A stretch of 64,000 nt of DNA from a virus. Lineage: Duplodnaviria > Caudoviricetes. The notes under the pieces are model-generated. The model made no database searches and was not told the DNA's origin. It was given only the letters and a program-made list of their open reading frames with translations. Position numbers and translations under genes: made by a program. Within the stretch, counting starts at the first letter, position 1. Each line of letters begins with the position of its first letter. This document shows positions 5,310 to 52,350 of this stretch, in pieces. Location: positions 160,001 to 224,000 of IMG/VR virus record IMGVR_UViG_3300036762_000065. One strand, written 5' to 3'.

Positions 5310-5522
5310 GTGTGTATGAATCATAACAATCAATACAATATGCTTGAGAAAAAGGAAATAAATAAGAAAAAGGAAGCTGCACTTATACAGGCTCAGGTAG
5401 AAAAGTTTTTAGCAACAGGCGGCTCTATAGTAGAAGTTGCAGCAGCCTCTAACGTAGAAGAGGTTAAAGCAAGCGTGTTGCAAGCGCTAAGGAAGCAAGA
5501 GCTTAATTATGAACACCTGTAA
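5310..5522 (+). CDS. Hypothetical protein
   Basis: GGAGG RBS; contains VEKFLATGGSI. Confidence 0.65.
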   Translation: MCMNHNNQYNMLEKKEINKKKEAALIQAQVEKFLATGGSIVEVAAASNVEEVKASVLQALRKQELNYEHL

Positions 5523-6345: not shown

Positions 6346-6663
6346 TTGAGAACTATGAAGAGTGAAGGTGTCGTAGATAATGACGAGAAACGACTGGATG
6401 AAGGCAAGTCCGTTCAAGATCGACTTGTTATGCGCGGTAATTGGATTGCCGCAGAAGACAAGTTGCCACCACCCGAAACACCCGTGTTAGCTTTTGTACA
6501 TGGCATAGACATACCCATAGTTTTAGAAATGAGATGGGAAACCTGCAACCCAATGGTTGAACCATATTTTAATGATTTTCTTTATTGGGATAACCCTCAT
6601 GACGATGGGCAAAATTATGAAGACAGGGTATTTGCATGGCAACCACTACCAGAAGACCCTTGA
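6346..6663 (+). CDS. DUF551-like phage protein
   Basis: WI...DKLP....PVL and VFAWQPLPEDP motifs. Confidence 0.75.
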   Translation: MRTMKSEGVVDNDEKRLDEGKSVQDRLVMRGNWIAAEDKLPPPETPVLAFVHGIDIPIVLEMRWETCNPMVEPYFNDFLYWDNPHDDGQNYEDRVFAWQPLPEDP

Positions 6664-6666
6664 TAC

Positions 6667-6714
6667 ACATAACCACAAGCACAACGGCTAGTCCGTTGAT
6701 GAGTAGGGTTAAGT
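6667..6714. mobile_element. attC-like site A
   Basis: ACATAAC-N6-CACAACGG...CCGTTG(A)TG-N6-GTTAAGT: inverted core boxes and an inner stem with one extrahelical base. Confidence 0.55.
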
Positions 6715-7003
6715 GTAAGTTTTGGAAGGTAGGCTTAGAAGCAGCCATCCTTTAAAGAGTGGGGTCTTTGCTCCTTGTGACATGTAACTACCTGGAGCGT
6801 TTTTGTAAGGTAGTGAAAGTTGAACCAACCGCTGACTTTGATCAGAGTTATGTTGGGTAGACAAGTTGCGTGGAGGATAACGCCAAAGAGCTAGTAAGAA
6901 CCTGTGAAATGACATGGGCATAGCGTGAGTTGGAGCGGTAAAAGTCGTACCCAACCTAACAGTCCCTTTAGCGTAACAGCACACCAGAACTTACACCTAA
7001 TTT
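6706..7003 (+). ncRNA. Structured RNA containing a split mimic of the 23S rRNA uL11-binding domain (H43-H44)
   Basis: 6721-6760 aligns without gaps to E. coli 23S nt 1051-1090 and 6971-6988 to nt 1091-1108, with compensatory changes. Closing helix 6713-6725/6984-6996; structured 210-nt insert. Confidence 0.85.
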
Positions 7004-7018
7004 AACTAGGAGATAGCC

Positions 7019-7216
7019 ATGTTTTCAGAAGACGATTTGATTAATGTATGCGTCTACCCAGACGGTACACAAAGCCACAAGCCCCTGCCAGAGAAAGGGG
7101 ATGATTATGAATGGAGGCGCACCATTTACTGTGCGAGGTGCAACTCAGTATTGAGATTGCACCCCGAAGAGCCATTCGCTTCATGTGGATGCGGCACAAC
7201 GGAGTGGTACAAATGA
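7019..7216 (+). CDS. Small Zn-ribbon protein
   Basis: AGGAG RBS; CARC...CGC. Confidence 0.65.
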   Translation: MFSEDDLINVCVYPDGTQSHKPLPEKGDDYEWRRTIYCARCNSVLRLHPEEPFASCGCGTTEWYK

Positions 7217-15398: not shown

Positions 15399-15920
15399 CT
15401 ATACCCAATTAGGGCCGTTATAAGCTTCTAGCTGGGTGATGTTGTATGTCATTACTGTAGTTATATCAGACCTACGCACACCTTCAATATGTCCGTACAT
15501 TACTTTCAATGCGGCCTTGGCGGCGTCATACTGTGCAACTACTAAAGCAGCTAGGTATTCCACGGTCTCGCCTGTGTGCGAAGTCTCTGCATTCATTATA
15601 GGTGTCGGTGTAGAATTCAGAACGAGGTAGGCAGAAGCCTCTGTATACTTCTCCTCGTATGTTCTTATTTGTTCTGAATCTTCTGTACCTAAAACTGCAT
15701 AGTAGCGACTAAGGCGTTCGCTATTTGCCTCATCTCGAATTTTATTCGTAATGAGTTTCCTATAGTATGTTAGCCTATCTGCCTCAAGCGTAATTTCATC
15801 CACTGAATCACCGACTTCCCAAACTATGGACGCGTAAGATTCAGGATCAGTAGAACTAACCTGCTTGTCAGGGTACATAGCACCAATTACAGATATTAAT
15901 GATGGTTTTTCTACATACAT
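15399..15920 (-). CDS. Putative tail fibre assembly/chaperone-like protein
   Basis: Directly after a fibre gene; TY.EKY.EA.AY...TP.M.AE...GE...LA.LV pattern. Confidence 0.55.
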   Translation of the reverse strand: MYVEKPSLISVIGAMYPDKQVSSTDPESYASIVWEVGDSVDEITLEADRLTYYRKLITNKIRDEANSERLSRYYAVLGTEDSEQIRTYEEKYTEASAYLVLNSTPTPIMNAETSHTGETVEYLAALVVAQYDAAKAALKVMYGHIEGVRRSDITTVMTYNITQLEAYNGPNWV

Positions 15921-17434
15921 TATACATACACCTCCTGAATTAGGATAGAATTGGACTTACTGATTGCTCCACCCCATCCGCCTTGTGTTGTACGCGCACA
16001 TATCCAATAATCATTATTAGGACCTGAGAACGATCCGCATCTAATGGAATAGGTATGTGACGCTGTGTCTCCTGGAGCGTCCAAAATATCTGCTACCAAT
16101 GACGCATTCTTTATTGGATCGGAGCTCTCTCTTGAACTATATATAGAGCCGCCTATTAGTAAACTATCTCTAAACACTGCGTAACCAAAGCCGGATTGCT
16201 TTTTCTCGTAAGAAGCCATGTGTAAGGTAATTTGCAATCTCAGCTTACTATCGGCTTTTTCTAGTGCAATATTTTTAGAGTAGACTTCTGTACCGTTTGA
16301 TATTGTAGGAGGTGTATCATCAGGTAAATAAGAAGTTCCCCAACGTTCTGCAATATTCTCAATACTAAAATTAGATGTACTAAGGCCCTCTTTACCACCA
16401 CTAGACTCTTTGTTTTTCCAAACACCAGACTCTAGTGTAAGTACATCGCCTTCTTGGGAGTTTGTCAGTGTTACATCAGACAAACCGTTTAACGTAGTTA
16501 TACCGCTACTTGGTCCAGTAGGTCCTATGTCACCTTTCGGTCCTTGAGGACCTGTTGGGCCTGTAATAGATGTACCGTCGTTGCCTTGTGGACCTGTAGG
16601 CCCGATAGCTCCAGTAGGTCCGGGTAATCCCACAGGCCCTATAATACCTTTAGTAACAAACCACGCACTGACTTGTGCTCCTGAAGCACCACCTCCGCTA
16701 CTGACAGTACGGAAATTTAATAAGCTCCCTGCACTAACAACAAGCTTGTTTATATCGTCTTGCGGAAAAGTCTGAATACCGTTACCGGAAGAAGCAACAA
16801 CAGACTTAGAAACAGGAGAAGTGTTTATAAGTAACTCTACTTCGGGGTTTCCGAAGTTAGTGCTTAAGGTCATTGCGTATAAGACACAATCTATAGGAAC
16901 GTATATACCTTGTGCGGCAGGAGCCTTGTCAGATGCACCAAACGACCACTGCATTGCGTTAGCGGAAAGAGCACCTGAACACTCAGCAACAACATTAAAG
17001 AAGCCTCCGCCTCCGGCATCTGCGAAAGTGATGTTTCCTACACCATCGGTTATCATAACCTGTCCACTTTGTCCATCACTAGGAGGCAAAGTAAGTCCTT
17101 GTATCTTGACAGTACCTGTTTCTTTGTTTGTTTCTAATATGGTAGTGCCTTCTGCATTCTTCGCTATAACATTATTCGTAACGACACTAGAAGCTCTTAA
17201 AAATCTACCGCTTAAAAAATCTACTGCATCTGTGCTACTTAAATCAGCCGTACCATCATTTAAAACAATTGAACCTGAATTTAGAGCAGTTATTAAGTCT
17301 GCGCTGCGAGCCAGTAACGATAGAGGTAGATGGTCAAACGATTCCGTTGTATTAGCAGGAATAGAATCTCCAAAAGAAAATTCGAGTTTGGTTTCTGTTA
17401 TATTTTTTAGATTAATAGACATTACGCTCTCCAC
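15920..17434 (-). CDS. Tail fibre-like protein with collagen-like repeats
   Basis: GPTGPQG repeats; LPPSDG..GQV..TDG.G and LNGLSDV fibre motifs. Confidence 0.8.
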   Translation of the reverse strand: MESVMSINLKNITETKLEFSFGDSIPANTTESFDHLPLSLLARSADLITALNSGSIVLNDGTADLSSTDAVDFLSGRFLRASSVVTNNVIAKNAEGTTILETNKETGTVKIQGLTLPPSDGQSGQVMITDGVGNITFADAGGGGFFNVVAECSGALSANAMQWSFGASDKAPAAQGIYVPIDCVLYAMTLSTNFGNPEVELLINTSPVSKSVVASSGNGIQTFPQDDINKLVVSAGSLLNFRTVSSGGGASGAQVSAWFVTKGIIGPVGLPGPTGAIGPTGPQGNDGTSITGPTGPQGPKGDIGPTGPSSGITTLNGLSDVTLTNSQEGDVLTLESGVWKNKESSGGKEGLSTSNFSIENIAERWGTSYLPDDTPPTISNGTEVYSKNIALEKADSKLRLQITLHMASYEKKQSGFGYAVFRDSLLIGGSIYSSRESSDPIKNASLVADILDAPGDTASHTYSIRCGSFSGPNNDYWICARTTQGGWGGAISKSNSILIQEVYV

Positions 17435-41833: not shown

Positions 41834-44800
41834 TTAGCTTCGAGTTCTGATCTTTCCGATAGCACCTCCGTAAGAAACAGAACCTGCTCCGCCAGTTCCT
41901 ACATTGCCTCCGCCCCCGCTGCCTAGTCGTGAAAATCCGATTGCGTTAGGTCTAAACTTTTCAACATCGCCCGGGTCTAATACAAAGTACTCGGCAAGCT
42001 TATCGTCTTGAAGGCCCCAACAAGTTAAGGCAAATGCACGCCAAGTATCGTCCGTAAGTCCTTCGGCTTTTAATACTTTAGTGCCTGTATCTTGTACTGT
42101 AAGAAGTTGCACTACAAGATGATCCATTTCTTTATCTTGGAAACATGTAGGATAAGCCTTTTCCTCGAAGTCTATAACATCACGCACACTCATTCCCTTT
42201 CTTGATAGTCTTGGGAAACTAACAGACTGTTGTTCAAGTAATGTCTTTGGCAGCCATAAATCCTTATACTTCAAACTATACTGTTGTGTGTATATGCCTA
42301 ATTCTTCCTCTGCGTCCGACAGAATCTTTAAGCTGTTCCACCTATCAGCAAGAAATACTTTAACGTTCCTACTTTTTACTATAGGAATTATAACATGATC
42401 ATATATTTTTGTGTAGTTTAAAGGGAAGCCCGGACGCGGCATTATCTCTACTAATAGATCAACAGTTATAAGTCCGTTATCCGCATTTAAAGAACTAACA
42501 CAACAAGCAAACGAGTTGTTGGTATGCCCTGCATCAATAGCCAAACAAGAAGGGCGTTTTGATTTTTTAATTTTATCAATGACGCCCCACCGACAGGCTG
42601 ATTTCCTACCGCTTTCTTTGCGTATCTTATAGCTTAATTTTACAGGATTGGAGTGTTGCCCTATGCAATCTTGTATGCTCTGCTTATCTGTAATAAACGG
42701 AGATGCTGCTAGAGGAGGTACCGCCCCGTAGTCCCGTTCTGCACCTTCAGGATCGGTTCTGTAACGTTCTTGTATAACTTTCGAATTTCTCGGTAGGGTA
42801 GGGTTTATTTCCCACGTAGGTCTGTGTACACCGTATACTGACTTAGATGTTTGGGCCGAATTAACTAAGCTCATAATCTTATCGCGACGGTGTGCCGGAC
42901 TACTTACGTTCATGCTCATACCGTTAAGTACGTCATCATATCCTGCTTTGACAAGTCGTTCCGCAGCACCTCTTACAGTCAACAAGCTACTATCGAGCGC
43001 ATCATAAACACCGGCTGCGCTCATTTTTATTTTCTTGCTGTCTGCATCGTTATCGAAGTAGCCGATTTCATCAATGCCTCCAAATACGCGAGTTCTTCCT
43101 CGAAGAATACGTTTATCAGGACCTGCCGGATACCACATTAGATTTCTACAACGATACGCTACAAAGGTGTCATTAAACTTAAATAACTTTTGTCCGTACT
43201 TCTCTTCATAGTAGTTTAGCATTTTGTGGTATTCACGAAACCAAGGGCTTTCAATGAGAGTTCCGTAATAAAATTCCCACAAAGTTTCTTTAGCTTGCGC
43301 GTAAGTTAAAGCACAAAAGGTCCCGTGAAGGACCGTAGAAGAGGATACGTTATACACCTGAGCAGGCTTCTGCATTTTAAGAAGCCTGTGTGTCATGTAA
43401 GGTGTTAGCATTCCGCCAACCGTCTGCGACTTACCGCTGTTGTGTGATATAATACCTCCTGTGACGAATTGGTGTGTTTTAGGGAGCGTAAAATCGTAAG
43501 TCTCAAATTGTTTAGTTGATACTTGGTTTTTGGTCACTCGACAAAACACCACGTCATCCGAACAATATGTCAACAACTGTTCAAATTCAAACTTGACTTC
43601 TGGAGACATATACTCTACTTTTTGTAAAGCTACGGTACAGATTTCCAGTAACTTGCGTTTTGTTAAACGAACGGCTTTGCTCTTCCTTAGTTTTCTTAGG
43701 GAAAACGACAATTTTTCACTATTGCGTCCAAACACAGTACTTATTCCCATTGTGATCTTGGGTATACGTGTGCGAAACTTTTCGCTGGTAGCACGTTCGT
43801 AGTAAGGTAAAGGAAAAACATGTAGTTCTGCATTCCAACGATCAAGAAGTGATCGTAGTCTGGATTCAAGAAATTCCAAATTCTCATACCAGTACGGTAC
43901 TAAGTTTGTGCGGGAATCCAGTACCTCAATAGCGTGATCTAGTTGGTTCTTTTTGCGTGACGACAAAAATCCAACCTGGTCTCGAAAACGCTTTAAATAC
44001 ATACCACGAATCGAAATAAACCAGCTAGGTTTAGAAATCTGCTTATCGGTCCCGTTAGTTGCCCATGTCCACTTTCTACGAATCCTGTGCGCTATGCCTA
44101 AATTGTGCAACATAGCACTAAGCTGGTATGCCAGTTTTTGACTTATCGTGCAATAACTAACAGAATGACGTAGGTCTTTCTTTACATTCCTACTTACCCA
44201 ACCATCACCTTCGTAAAGACCTTGTAAAAAGGCACAAACGTTTTCTTTTGTAGAAGTACGGACAGACAACGGGATTTCTTTTAACGCAGAACCAGATGAT
44301 AACCCTTCGCTTGATAACCCTAGTAGTTCTGCGAAAAACAGGCGGCCCTTGTGCCCACGTATTGAGGTGTAGGTGTTGCCATTTTCATCACAAGATACCC
44401 TAATGTGATGCTTGTTTATATATTTCATTAACGTTTTTAGGTAGAACGCATTGACTTCTGGACATTTGTTACAAACACCTGCACTTCGACCTTCTGCAAC
44501 CCAAAGTCCTAACACCTTATACATATCAGAGCATATATCACCTGAATAGGCTTTGAATAACGTAGGGTATTTTTTTGCAGTGTAGTCCATAGATTTTTGA
44601 TTAACTCGCAGCATAATATCTTCGAAATATAGATGCCGGTTACCAAACACCTGTTGATTTAGTCGAACCGGCACAATATCTGAAGGCGACACGTCCACTA
44701 GGCGCTTAAAAACTCCATCTAGTAGCTGTATAGGGTGATCCGAAGTACCTCTTATCCTTATACCATTATACAACGTAACAGATCGAATAAATTCGGGCTT

Positions 44801-45556
44801 TGCTCGATAAAAATCTGTGGTCTGTTCAAACTCTGTCCCGTTATGTACGTTTAAATGGAATCGTGAAAAGCCGAAACGCTTGTTTTTTGTATACTCACCT
44901 ATACTCATAAGACCGTGTTCAGTCAATATACAAGTATCACCTGTGACACAACGCTGCCCTGCACACACCGCTAATTCTTGGTAAAAGTAAAGCTGTTCAT
45001 TTGTTATGAATGTAGATCGTCTTCCGCCGCAAGCAGGACAAACCCCATTTTCAAACAAACAAACGTTACGCTCAAACGTCAAGAACGTATCATCAACTTT
45101 GTGGTCATAATACAACCACTCAACATTCGAACAAGCAGGACAGTAATCAGCAAATATTATTATGCCCCATATAAGTTGCTCCATAAACGGTGTAACTACT
45201 GTACCTGCAAACTCATCCCGAGTTACCCACTCATAAAAGTTTTTAGCTAGAGGCATAGCAGAATCATCTACCTTTGTATCTCTTGGCTTAAAAGAACCTT
45301 TTGAATCCTCGATCATCTGTCTGACCATAGAAGCAACGTTTGCTTCGTTCACTATCTCTATGGCAACAGCTTCATCTTTACCTTTATCTAAAAAAGAAGT
45401 ATCAAACCCTTCACCTCTAACATGTTTAAGTTTAGTCAAAAACTTAAACGGGTCCCCAGTATCTTTGACTGTACTAATCAACAGATCGTAGTCGTCATAG
45501 ATGGAAATTTCCTTTTTCTTTGGCTTATTCTTTTTATCTTCCAAAGCTAACATCAT
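41834..45556 (-). CDS. terL: Terminase large subunit, intein-interrupted
   Basis: Walker A AGQR|SGKS split by an intein; LRGR, IDEIG Walker B, NVSSP, AIDAG nuclease motif, ADRWNS, TDD. Confidence 0.93.
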   Translation of the reverse strand: MMLALEDKKNKPKKKEISIYDDYDLLISTVKDTGDPFKFLTKLKHVRGEGFDTSFLDKGKDEAVAIEIVNEANVASMVRQMIEDSKGSFKPRDTKVDDSAMPLAKNFYEWVTRDEFAGTVVTPFMEQLIWGIIIFADYCPACSNVEWLYYDHKVDDTFLTFERNVCLFENGVCPACGGRRSTFITNEQLYFYQELAVCAGQRCVTGDTCILTEHGLMSIGEYTKNKRFGFSRFHLNVHNGTEFEQTTDFYRAKPEFIRSVTLYNGIRIRGTSDHPIQLLDGVFKRLVDVSPSDIVPVRLNQQVFGNRHLYFEDIMLRVNQKSMDYTAKKYPTLFKAYSGDICSDMYKVLGLWVAEGRSAGVCNKCPEVNAFYLKTLMKYINKHHIRVSCDENGNTYTSIRGHKGRLFFAELLGLSSEGLSSGSALKEIPLSVRTSTKENVCAFLQGLYEGDGWVSRNVKKDLRHSVSYCTISQKLAYQLSAMLHNLGIAHRIRRKWTWATNGTDKQISKPSWFISIRGMYLKRFRDQVGFLSSRKKNQLDHAIEVLDSRTNLVPYWYENLEFLESRLRSLLDRWNAELHVFPLPYYERATSEKFRTRIPKITMGISTVFGRNSEKLSFSLRKLRKSKAVRLTKRKLLEICTVALQKVEYMSPEVKFEFEQLLTYCSDDVVFCRVTKNQVSTKQFETYDFTLPKTHQFVTGGIISHNSGKSQTVGGMLTPYMTHRLLKMQKPAQVYNVSSSTVLHGTFCALTYAQAKETLWEFYYGTLIESPWFREYHKMLNYYEEKYGQKLFKFNDTFVAYRCRNLMWYPAGPDKRILRGRTRVFGGIDEIGYFDNDADSKKIKMSAAGVYDALDSSLLTVRGAAERLVKAGYDDVLNGMSMNVSSPAHRRDKIMSLVNSAQTSKSVYGVHRPTWEINPTLPRNSKVIQERYRTDPEGAERDYGAVPPLAASPFITDKQSIQDCIGQHSNPVKLSYKIRKESGRKSACRWGVIDKIKKSKRPSCLAIDAGHTNNSFACCVSSLNADNGLITVDLLVEIMPRPGFPLNYTKIYDHVIIPIVKSRNVKVFLADRWNSLKILSDAEEELGIYTQQYSLKYKDLWLPKTLLEQQSVSFPRLSRKGMSVRDVIDFEEKAYPTCFQDKEMDHLVVQLLTVQDTGTKVLKAEGLTDDTWRAFALTCWGLQDDKLAEYFVLDPGDVEKFRPNAIGFSRLGSGGGGNVGTGGAGSVSYGGAIGKIRTRS
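43439..44950 (-). mobile_element. Intein with LAGLIDADG homing endonuclease (504 aa) in TerL
   Basis: Starts CVTGDT, ends ISHN before Ser; TSDHP, LGLWVAEG, FLQGLYEGDG and TYDF motifs. Confidence 0.93.
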
Positions 45557-52272: not shown

Positions 52273-52350
52273 TGGTGCCCCTCGGCGGACTTGAACCGAC
52301 GACCTACCGATTATGGGTCAGGTGCTCTAACAAACTGAGCTAAAGGGGGC
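52273..52350 (-). tRNA. Degenerate tRNA, CAT anticodon (Ile2/Met-like)
   Basis: GCCCCCTTTAGCTCAGTTTGTTAGAGCACCTGACCCATAATCGGTAGGTCGTCGGTTCAAGTCCGCCGAGGGGCACCA: cloverleaf, TTCAA T-loop and encoded CCA, with several non-canonical positions. Confidence 0.8.

Follow-up and report, generated by a model that had tools for sequence, protein, structure and literature searches.

What does a piece of the large ribosomal RNA do in the genome of a virus? The question was raised by positions 6706-7003 (+) of the stretch of DNA analysed here (64,000 nucleotides, the window), in which a preliminary description, made from the letters alone, had recognized the GTPase-associated centre of 23S rRNA (end of H42, H43 and H44; E. 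coli nt 1051-1108). The window belongs to an uncultured jumbo phage genome in IMG/VR (241,706 bp, 127-bp terminal repeats, 39% G+C) which contains one copy of the element. The explanation that we favour includes the reading of this locus as a gene for a stable non-coding RNA of ~300 nt, a candidate assignment that we hold with about even confidence.

Match of the element to 23S rRNA

A real 23S sequence, the E. coli-type 23S of IMG/VR contig L081 (LSU_rRNA_bacteria, 2214 bits), served as reference. When joined, positions 6721-6760 and 6971-6988 formed a 58-mer in which 43 of 58 nucleotides are identical to 23S nt 1051-1108; both stretches read as the preliminary description had given them, gap-free and in register with the rRNA. 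The 58-mer is unchanged at 1062-1079 and 1081-1088 and carries A at 1061, an earlier claim that the comparison with the real 23S sequence bore out. Eleven of the 15 differences fall in six helix pairs, and pairing is retained in all six. Compensatory changes had been named, correctly, for four of these pairs (1058-1080 U-A to G-C, 1090-1101 A-U to U-A, 1054-1105 A-U to G-C and 1053-1106 C-G to U-A), and two more were found (1052-1107 C-G to U-G and 1051-1108 G-U to U-A). The 27-mer equivalent to 1062-1088 occurs a single time in the 64-kb window, with one mismatch, and no second site was detected there even at up to six mismatches.

The flanks of the element are unlike the flanks of the domain in the real 23S sequence. 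In the minimum free energy (MFE) fold the two flanks are base-paired, 6713-6725 with 6984-6996 and then 6706-6711 with 6998-7003, in agreement with the earlier proposal of an own closing helix that replaces H42 and is not derived from rRNA. Measured against the fold of the GTPase-associated centre, the element retains both helices (H43 and H44) with their loops, and also the tertiary pair 1082-1086; it lacks an uninterrupted H44 continuing into H42 with the uL10 site, and has a 210-nt insert and a closing helix of free sequence instead. The individual parts are listed in Table 1.

A split partial match to LSU rRNA had been predicted for searches of Rfam, and none whatever was obtained: the LSU covariance model (RF02541) did not match the element at the gathering threshold or at E up to 10. 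In Rfam 15 as a whole, no family reached the gathering threshold and matches at E up to 10 were at chance level only (6500-7200). No description of the RNA was found in the literature either; a catalogue of more than 10,000 unnamed viral RNA candidates (2023, PMC10690425) might contain it. As far as Rfam 15 and the searchable literature go, the RNA family is undescribed, as the preliminary description had supposed.

Table 1 Parts of the element in window coordinates, with E. coli 23S numbering for the rRNA-like positions
Feature	Position in window	Strand	Basis or details
Closing helix, 5' strand, in place of H42 (~1036-1055)	6706..6725	+	MFE fold and family covariation
H43 mimic (1057-1081)	6727..6751	+	loop 6735-6743; A1067 equivalent 6737; U1060.U1078 mismatch kept; 1061 = A
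Junction strand 1082-1090 (UUAAAGAGU)	6752..6760	+	family covariation (30 copies)
Junction, tertiary pair U1082-A1086	6752/6756		
Junction, G1087; A1088; U1090	6757; 6758; 6760		
Inserted domain, 210 nt, 'type W'	6761..6970	+	base helix 6761-6765/6962-6966
Insert inner helices	6771-6774/6872-6875; 6778-6781/6819-6822; 6787-6793/6808-6814	+	RNAalifold consensus
Insert inner helices, continued	6852-6854/6860-6862; 6901-6906/6913-6918; 6937-6940/6948-6951	+	RNAalifold consensus
Linker UUUA	6967-6970	+	end of inserted domain
H44 hairpin and lower pairs (1091-1102)	6971..6982	+	loop G1093-A1098 = 6973-6978; A1095 equivalent 6975
H44 lower pair A1101-U1090	6981/6760		
H44 lower pair C1102-G1087	6982/6757		
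Closing helix, 3' strand (~1104-1123)	6984..7003	+	MFE fold, family covariation and end of L051 similarity

A family of related elements

Searches of GenBank phage sequences with blastn located the 5' half in six cultured phages, namely the Pseudomonas phages pf16, UNO-G1W1, Milchi and Astolliot, Aeromonas phage 4_4572 and Xanthomonas phage XacN1. In all five of the cultured loci that were read (all but Astolliot), the 3' half follows 95-230 nt farther downstream. Two pattern scans of IMG/VR returned 20 and 84 loci, and L081 was the sole real rRNA among them. After removal of duplicates, the IMG/VR loci and the five GenBank loci amounted to 63 distinct phage copies. In prokaryote assemblies, the 3'-half pattern gave 88 matches, which is about the chance expectation for that pattern, and 37 of the 88 have the 5' half upstream; these represent 30-36 distinct additional copies, whose sources are metagenome bins from many phyla plus a small number of isolates, e.g. 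Flintibacter muris. On these sequence matches, the putative phage RNA family is widespread and totals ~100 distinct copies.

All copies have one common design. A closing helix of free sequence stands where H42 would be and is followed by H43 with its loop and the U1060.U1078 mismatch and by a junction strand that terminates in GAGU. Between U1090 and G1091 there is invariably an extra domain, 45-355 nt long (63 of 63 phage copies). Behind it come a linker, UUUG in 51 and UUUA in seven of the 63, the H44 hairpin, and A1101 paired with U1090. A form with the 3' signature of the family and no insert had zero matches in IMG/VR. The window element has each of the family traits: an own closing helix, GAGU, a helix inserted at 1090/1091, a UUUG/A linker and the 3' half GCGUAAYAGCACAC. 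Of the 210 nt that separate its two rRNA-like halves, the comparison indicates that they are the extra domain which defines the family, a point missed in the first reading.

Contig L081 itself (IMGVR_UViG_2775507074_000001) is a 13.7-kb contig classed as viral that ends in the greater part of an E. coli-type 23S gene. Host contamination or transduced DNA could account for this gene.

Covariation and conserved positions

In the alignment of the 63 copies, 94.4% of the cells are paired, compared with 71.0% in column shuffles. The covariation score of 0.600 (0.154 in shuffles) was reached by none of 500 shuffles, and slid controls did not exceed 0.171. Two-sided changes occur at nine of nine pairs of the closing helix (1047-1055/1104-1112) and at four of four pairs of the base helix of the insert, whose pairs 1-4 are kept in 63, 63, 58 and 47 of the 63 copies with several pair types. 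Position 1058-1080 is Watson-Crick in every one of the 63 copies and all four pair types are used there. G1091-C1100 is kept throughout the 63, and C1092-G1099 in 62 with one swap to U-A; U1090-A1101 is U-A in 59 copies and U-G in three. With its ~100 distinct copies and heavy covariation, the family upholds the earlier view of the element as a selected structural mimic and not rRNA debris.

The high identity to 23S rRNA could otherwise have suggested a piece of rRNA debris, an rRNA fragment with an intron or a chimeric assembly, and group I introns do occur at nearby LSU sites. Neither LSU rRNA nor an intron was matched in Rfam, where the search covered Intron_gpI at the element, and the flanks are not rRNA. 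The element is also present in complete genomes of cultured phages, with both halves read in five, which speaks against debris and against a chimera. The strong covariation is at odds with debris, and inserts down to 45 nt are too small for introns. The family data thus refute these origins, and the probability that we leave to them is negligible.

Thirty copies had been chosen by their 3' half only, so that their 5' half is little biased. Among these, the tertiary pair 1082-1086 covaries (C-G in 14, U-A in 11 and A-U in three), 1057-1081 alternates between A-U and C-G, and U1060, A1077, A1084, A1085, A1088, G1089 and U1090 are invariant. The G/A1056.A1103 mismatch is held in the family. Other positions vary, 1061 through all four bases and 1097 through three. 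Since the tertiary pair covaries, the nucleotides that build the fold are held and neutral positions vary, the tertiary fold is under selection. Two exposed nucleotides without a structural role are largely kept as well: A is found at 1095 in 60 of 63 copies and at 1067 in 25 of 30, where G is the sole alternative (five of 30). Their retention points to selection on a functional surface, beyond the fold.

The five copies with G at the A1067 position (L101, L129, L137, L166 and L172) come from prokaryote assemblies, three of them gut Clostridia genomes or bins, one a Neisseriaceae bin and one a Candidatus Limenecus bin. All changes seen at 1067-1070 are from purine to purine.

The inserted domain

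A consensus of the insert was computed with RNAalifold on the window copy, L051, L016 and L015 and mapped to window coordinates (Table 1). The architecture of the 210-nt insert, a five-pair base helix and six inner helices, is common to the window copy, L051, L016 and, more distantly, L015. A scan for further relatives of this insert type gave L051, L016 and one chance match (L190) only.

The element does not encode a protein: across the family, the insert length modulo 3 takes all three values, and the open frames do not exceed the length of those in shuffled sequence. Coding on the minus strand by a 91-aa ORF (6709-6984) was also considered and rejected. Other parts of 23S rRNA were also sought in the insert. 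A sarcin-ricin loop (AGUACGAGAGGACC-like bulged-G hairpin) had no match within three mismatches in the window copy and 19 other members, and the looser pattern AGUA..GNRA..GAA was absent from the same 20 sequences. Compared with the real 23S sequence, from which the last 400 nt are missing, the insert gave short and weak blastn matches only (E 0.015-0.9), and an nhmmer profile of the window insert type had no match in this same truncated reference.

Should the inserted domain be the working part, the rRNA-like fold would be nothing but a stable folding module. An insert is indeed present in every member, and insert modules are common within subfamilies, such as the one shared by the window copy, L051, L016 and L015 or a GNRA-type hairpin module in many others. 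The insert is, however, the most variable part of the element (45-355 nt, several unrelated types), and the rRNA-like part is near-invariant down to its surface bases, the opposite of what a scaffold predicts. We therefore consider a mere scaffold improbable. A hypervariable insert beside a near-invariant rRNA-like part argues that the mimic itself would be the working part of the RNA.

The commonest insert type ends with AGUA, ~4 nt, a covarying 3-bp helix (GNC/GNC), ACC, a CCG-GNRA-CGG hairpin, UAAG, (U)GAA and the base helix. This module was seen in L001 (1620-1672), L003, L006, L011, L019, L030, L063 and others, and it is absent from the window insert.

Genomic context

The usual home of the family is the phage tRNA gene array, which the first reading had missed. 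A tRNA gene lies within 500 nt of 42 of the 63 copies, often at a distance of 3-25 nt, and all 263 tRNAs found within 3 kb of copies are on the strand of the element. No protein is a conserved neighbour among the 63 loci, the largest cluster being an HNH endonuclease at six of them. Proximity to tRNA genes, the shared strand and the missing protein neighbour together suggest an action in trans.

The copy in the window is located outside any tRNA array, in a genome without such an array, and the nearest tRNA call is 10 kb off on the other strand. It occupies the interval from a DUF551 gene (6346-6663) to a small zinc-ribbon-like ORF (7019-7216), in a series of genes on the + strand, among which are those for thymidylate synthase, a Lar-like protein and DHFR. 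A scan for sigma-70-like promoters and terminators revealed none flanking the element, from which we infer co-transcription with the neighbouring genes. The closing helix ends at 7003 and is followed by a Shine-Dalgarno-like AGGAG (7009-7013) and by an ATG at 7019, 15 nt past the element. This spacing would suit a cis-regulatory leader of the downstream small gene in the style of ribosomal-protein leaders. That gene does not encode a ribosomal protein, though, and most members of the family are flanked by tRNA genes and not by coding genes, with no gene family as conserved neighbour. We judge such a leader very improbable. The ribosomal-protein leader models yielded no significant match, the only hit being a chance-level L19 leader (E = 4), and a uL11 gene is absent from this phage genome.

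Two tRNA calls in the window differ between programs. Rfam reports a tRNA of 74 nt at 52276-52349 (-), with 42 bits and CAU in the anticodon loop; ARAGORN missed it. ARAGORN reports a 95-nt tRNA-Ile(GAU) at 16958-17052 (-), inside the ORF 15920-17434, which is not reported by Rfam.

The nearest relative of the window copy is L051, with 80% identity over 296 nt (window 6709-7000). Outside 6709-7000, no match between L051 and the window was detected, the protein level included. As the similarity is confined to this interval, the RNA moves or persists as a unit, and as it stops at 6709 and 7000, the ends of the element lie where the first reading had put them. The portal protein of the phage is 58% identical to that of the Pseudomonas jumbo phage PaBG, the nearest cultured relative, and the element is absent from PaBG at up to three mismatches.

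Proposed function

The mechanism that we propose starts with transcription of the RNA on the + strand together with its neighbours, which in most phages would be tRNAs, and with its subsequent release as a discrete molecule. It would adopt the native tertiary fold of the centre (H43, junction and H44), closed by its own helix and with the extra domain grafted into H44. Acting in trans and off the ribosome, the RNA would bind whatever the native fold binds, with host uL11 as the first candidate ligand, and the RNA or the resulting RNP would serve as a decoy of the ribosomal factor-binding site. Two outcomes may be envisaged. Either uL11 would be drawn off ribosomes, leading to weaker activation of RelA and a relaxed state with low ppGpp, or host molecules aimed at the GTPase centre would be soaked up. 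uL11 is required for RelA activation. A trans-acting decoy of the GTPase centre that binds uL11 or centre-targeting molecules is, in our view, the best explanation overall, and we would place it midway between likely and unlikely.

The isolated 58-nt domain folds autonomously and binds L11 and thiostrepton, and uL11 is to our knowledge the one protein known to bind it tightly. The isolated domain is known to bind uL11 and thiopeptides, and the uL10 site (H42) is missing from the phage RNA; among possible ligands we accordingly rank uL11 first, with a probability that we estimate as even or slightly higher. Several points count against a decoy. The extra domain in H44 might alter the fold or stand in the way of uL11; judging by the constant insertion site and the linker, the extra helix would not obstruct the binding surface. 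Nearly all uL11 resides in ribosomes, and a sponge would need a high copy number or active exchange. A decoy that resembles a substrate is a poor titrant of an enzyme. In Flintibacter muris, the one isolate compared, the mimic does not track the variant of the host 23S rRNA. The lack of a flanking sigma-70-like promoter or terminator is a further such point. A local role in cis is conceivable for the window copy, given its place outside a tRNA array and 15 nt before a start codon.

The second outcome, taken by itself, would make the RNA, with or without uL11, an anti-defence bait that diverts toxins or effectors aimed at the centre, such as ADP-ribosyltransferases, nucleases or methylases. The location on the same strand within tRNA arrays fits this idea, and there is a parallel in phage tRNA genes that offset tRNA-targeting defences. 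The exposed purines of the loop at 1067-1070 and A1095 are conserved, and the patchy distribution and mobility as a unit are typical of counter-defence cargo, the element being absent in PaBG and the sole thing shared with L051. A precedent exists in Tre23, a bacterial toxin that ADP-ribosylates H44 at nt 1095-1098 (PMC8661411). Unless it bound much more tightly, such a bait would be a weak competitor of tens of thousands of ribosomes. We consider the bait unlikely, all the more as we know of no defence system aimed at the GTPase-associated centre.

Alternatively, the RNA might be a binding platform for a translational GTPase, for RelA or for the tRNA elbow, and tune translation or tRNA handling in infection. 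Both factor-contact loops are kept and tRNA genes are co-located, and the tRNA elbow contacts A1067 on the ribosome. Such contacts are weak outside the whole ribosome, sequestration of EF-G or EF-Tu would harm the phage too, and A1067 is replaced by G in the five copies mentioned above. To this platform we assign a low probability.

A decoy that binds uL11 can be taken one step further. Large phages of many bacterial phyla may make a free-standing copy of the centre that forms, with host uL11, an off-ribosome particle which disarms host responses running through the centre, namely activation of the stringent response, or toxins and defence effectors by which the centre is modified. This fuller version is put forward tentatively, and we doubt it more than we believe it.

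Relation to known systems

With the rRNA centre the phage RNA shares the helices, both hairpin loops and the U1060.U1078 and G/A1056.A1103 mismatches, and covariation at the tertiary pair 1082-1086 resembles that in rRNA. Unlike the rRNA centre, it is encoded by phages outside an rRNA gene, has a plain helix instead of H42 and the uL10 site, carries a domain of 45-355 nt and the UUUG linker between 1090 and 1091, and has A at 1101, which pairs with U1090.

Ribosomal-protein leaders, e.g. the L10 leader (RF00557) and the L1-binding site of the L11 operon leader, likewise imitate a protein site of rRNA off the ribosome. These are partial mimics that act in cis before cellular ribosomal-protein operons, whereas the phage RNA is a free-standing copy of a whole domain and is mostly found between tRNA genes; in this phage there is no ribosomal-protein gene near the element or elsewhere.

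6S RNA holds RNA polymerase through its imitation of an open promoter, and the RNA anti-CRISPRs of phages are repeat mimics. Our proposal follows the same logic, in which a stable RNA resembles a nucleic-acid target and thereby keeps the binder of that target occupied. Unlike in these examples, the imitated object is a functional centre of the ribosome, and the partner of the phage RNA is putative.

The T4 tRNA cluster encodes the stable RNAs species 1 and 2, whose function is unknown. Phage tRNA arrays, with T4 species 1 and 2, offer the same genomic home and strand as in the present family, which is probably released from the same precursor transcripts. The phage RNA is not a tRNA, unlike the usual contents of these arrays, and its window copy lies outside any array; we know of no sequence relation to species 1 and 2.

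If uL11 or a centre-targeting molecule is bound, phages would steer translation or host defence with an imitation piece of the ribosome, a mode that is undescribed. An off-ribosome particle with uL11 would be the first viral decoy of an rRNA domain and a new class of RNA counter-defence beside phage tRNAs. Binding of uL11 or of a centre-targeting molecule would also assign a role to a common unannotated gap in phage tRNA arrays and hint at host factors or toxins that target the GTPase centre. As a model for RNA-protein interaction the domain is a classic, and the phage RNA adds a natural variant that folds by itself and tolerates an insertion at one site. The idea can be put to the test directly in cultured carriers, among them pf16, which infects Pseudomonas putida, and UNO-G1W1, Milchi, Astolliot, Aeromonas phage 4_4572 and Xanthomonas phage XacN1.

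Further features of the window

A 70-aa ORF upstream of the element, at 5310-5522 (+), matches the SutA RNA-polymerase-binding domain weakly, with 24.0 bits and below the cut-off of 29.3. The terminase large-subunit ORF (41834-45556, -) is 1240 aa long, and its terminase match covers residues 646-1226 only; the long N-terminal part matches phrog_9666, an uncharacterized phage family, and the ORF may have arisen by fusion or insertion.
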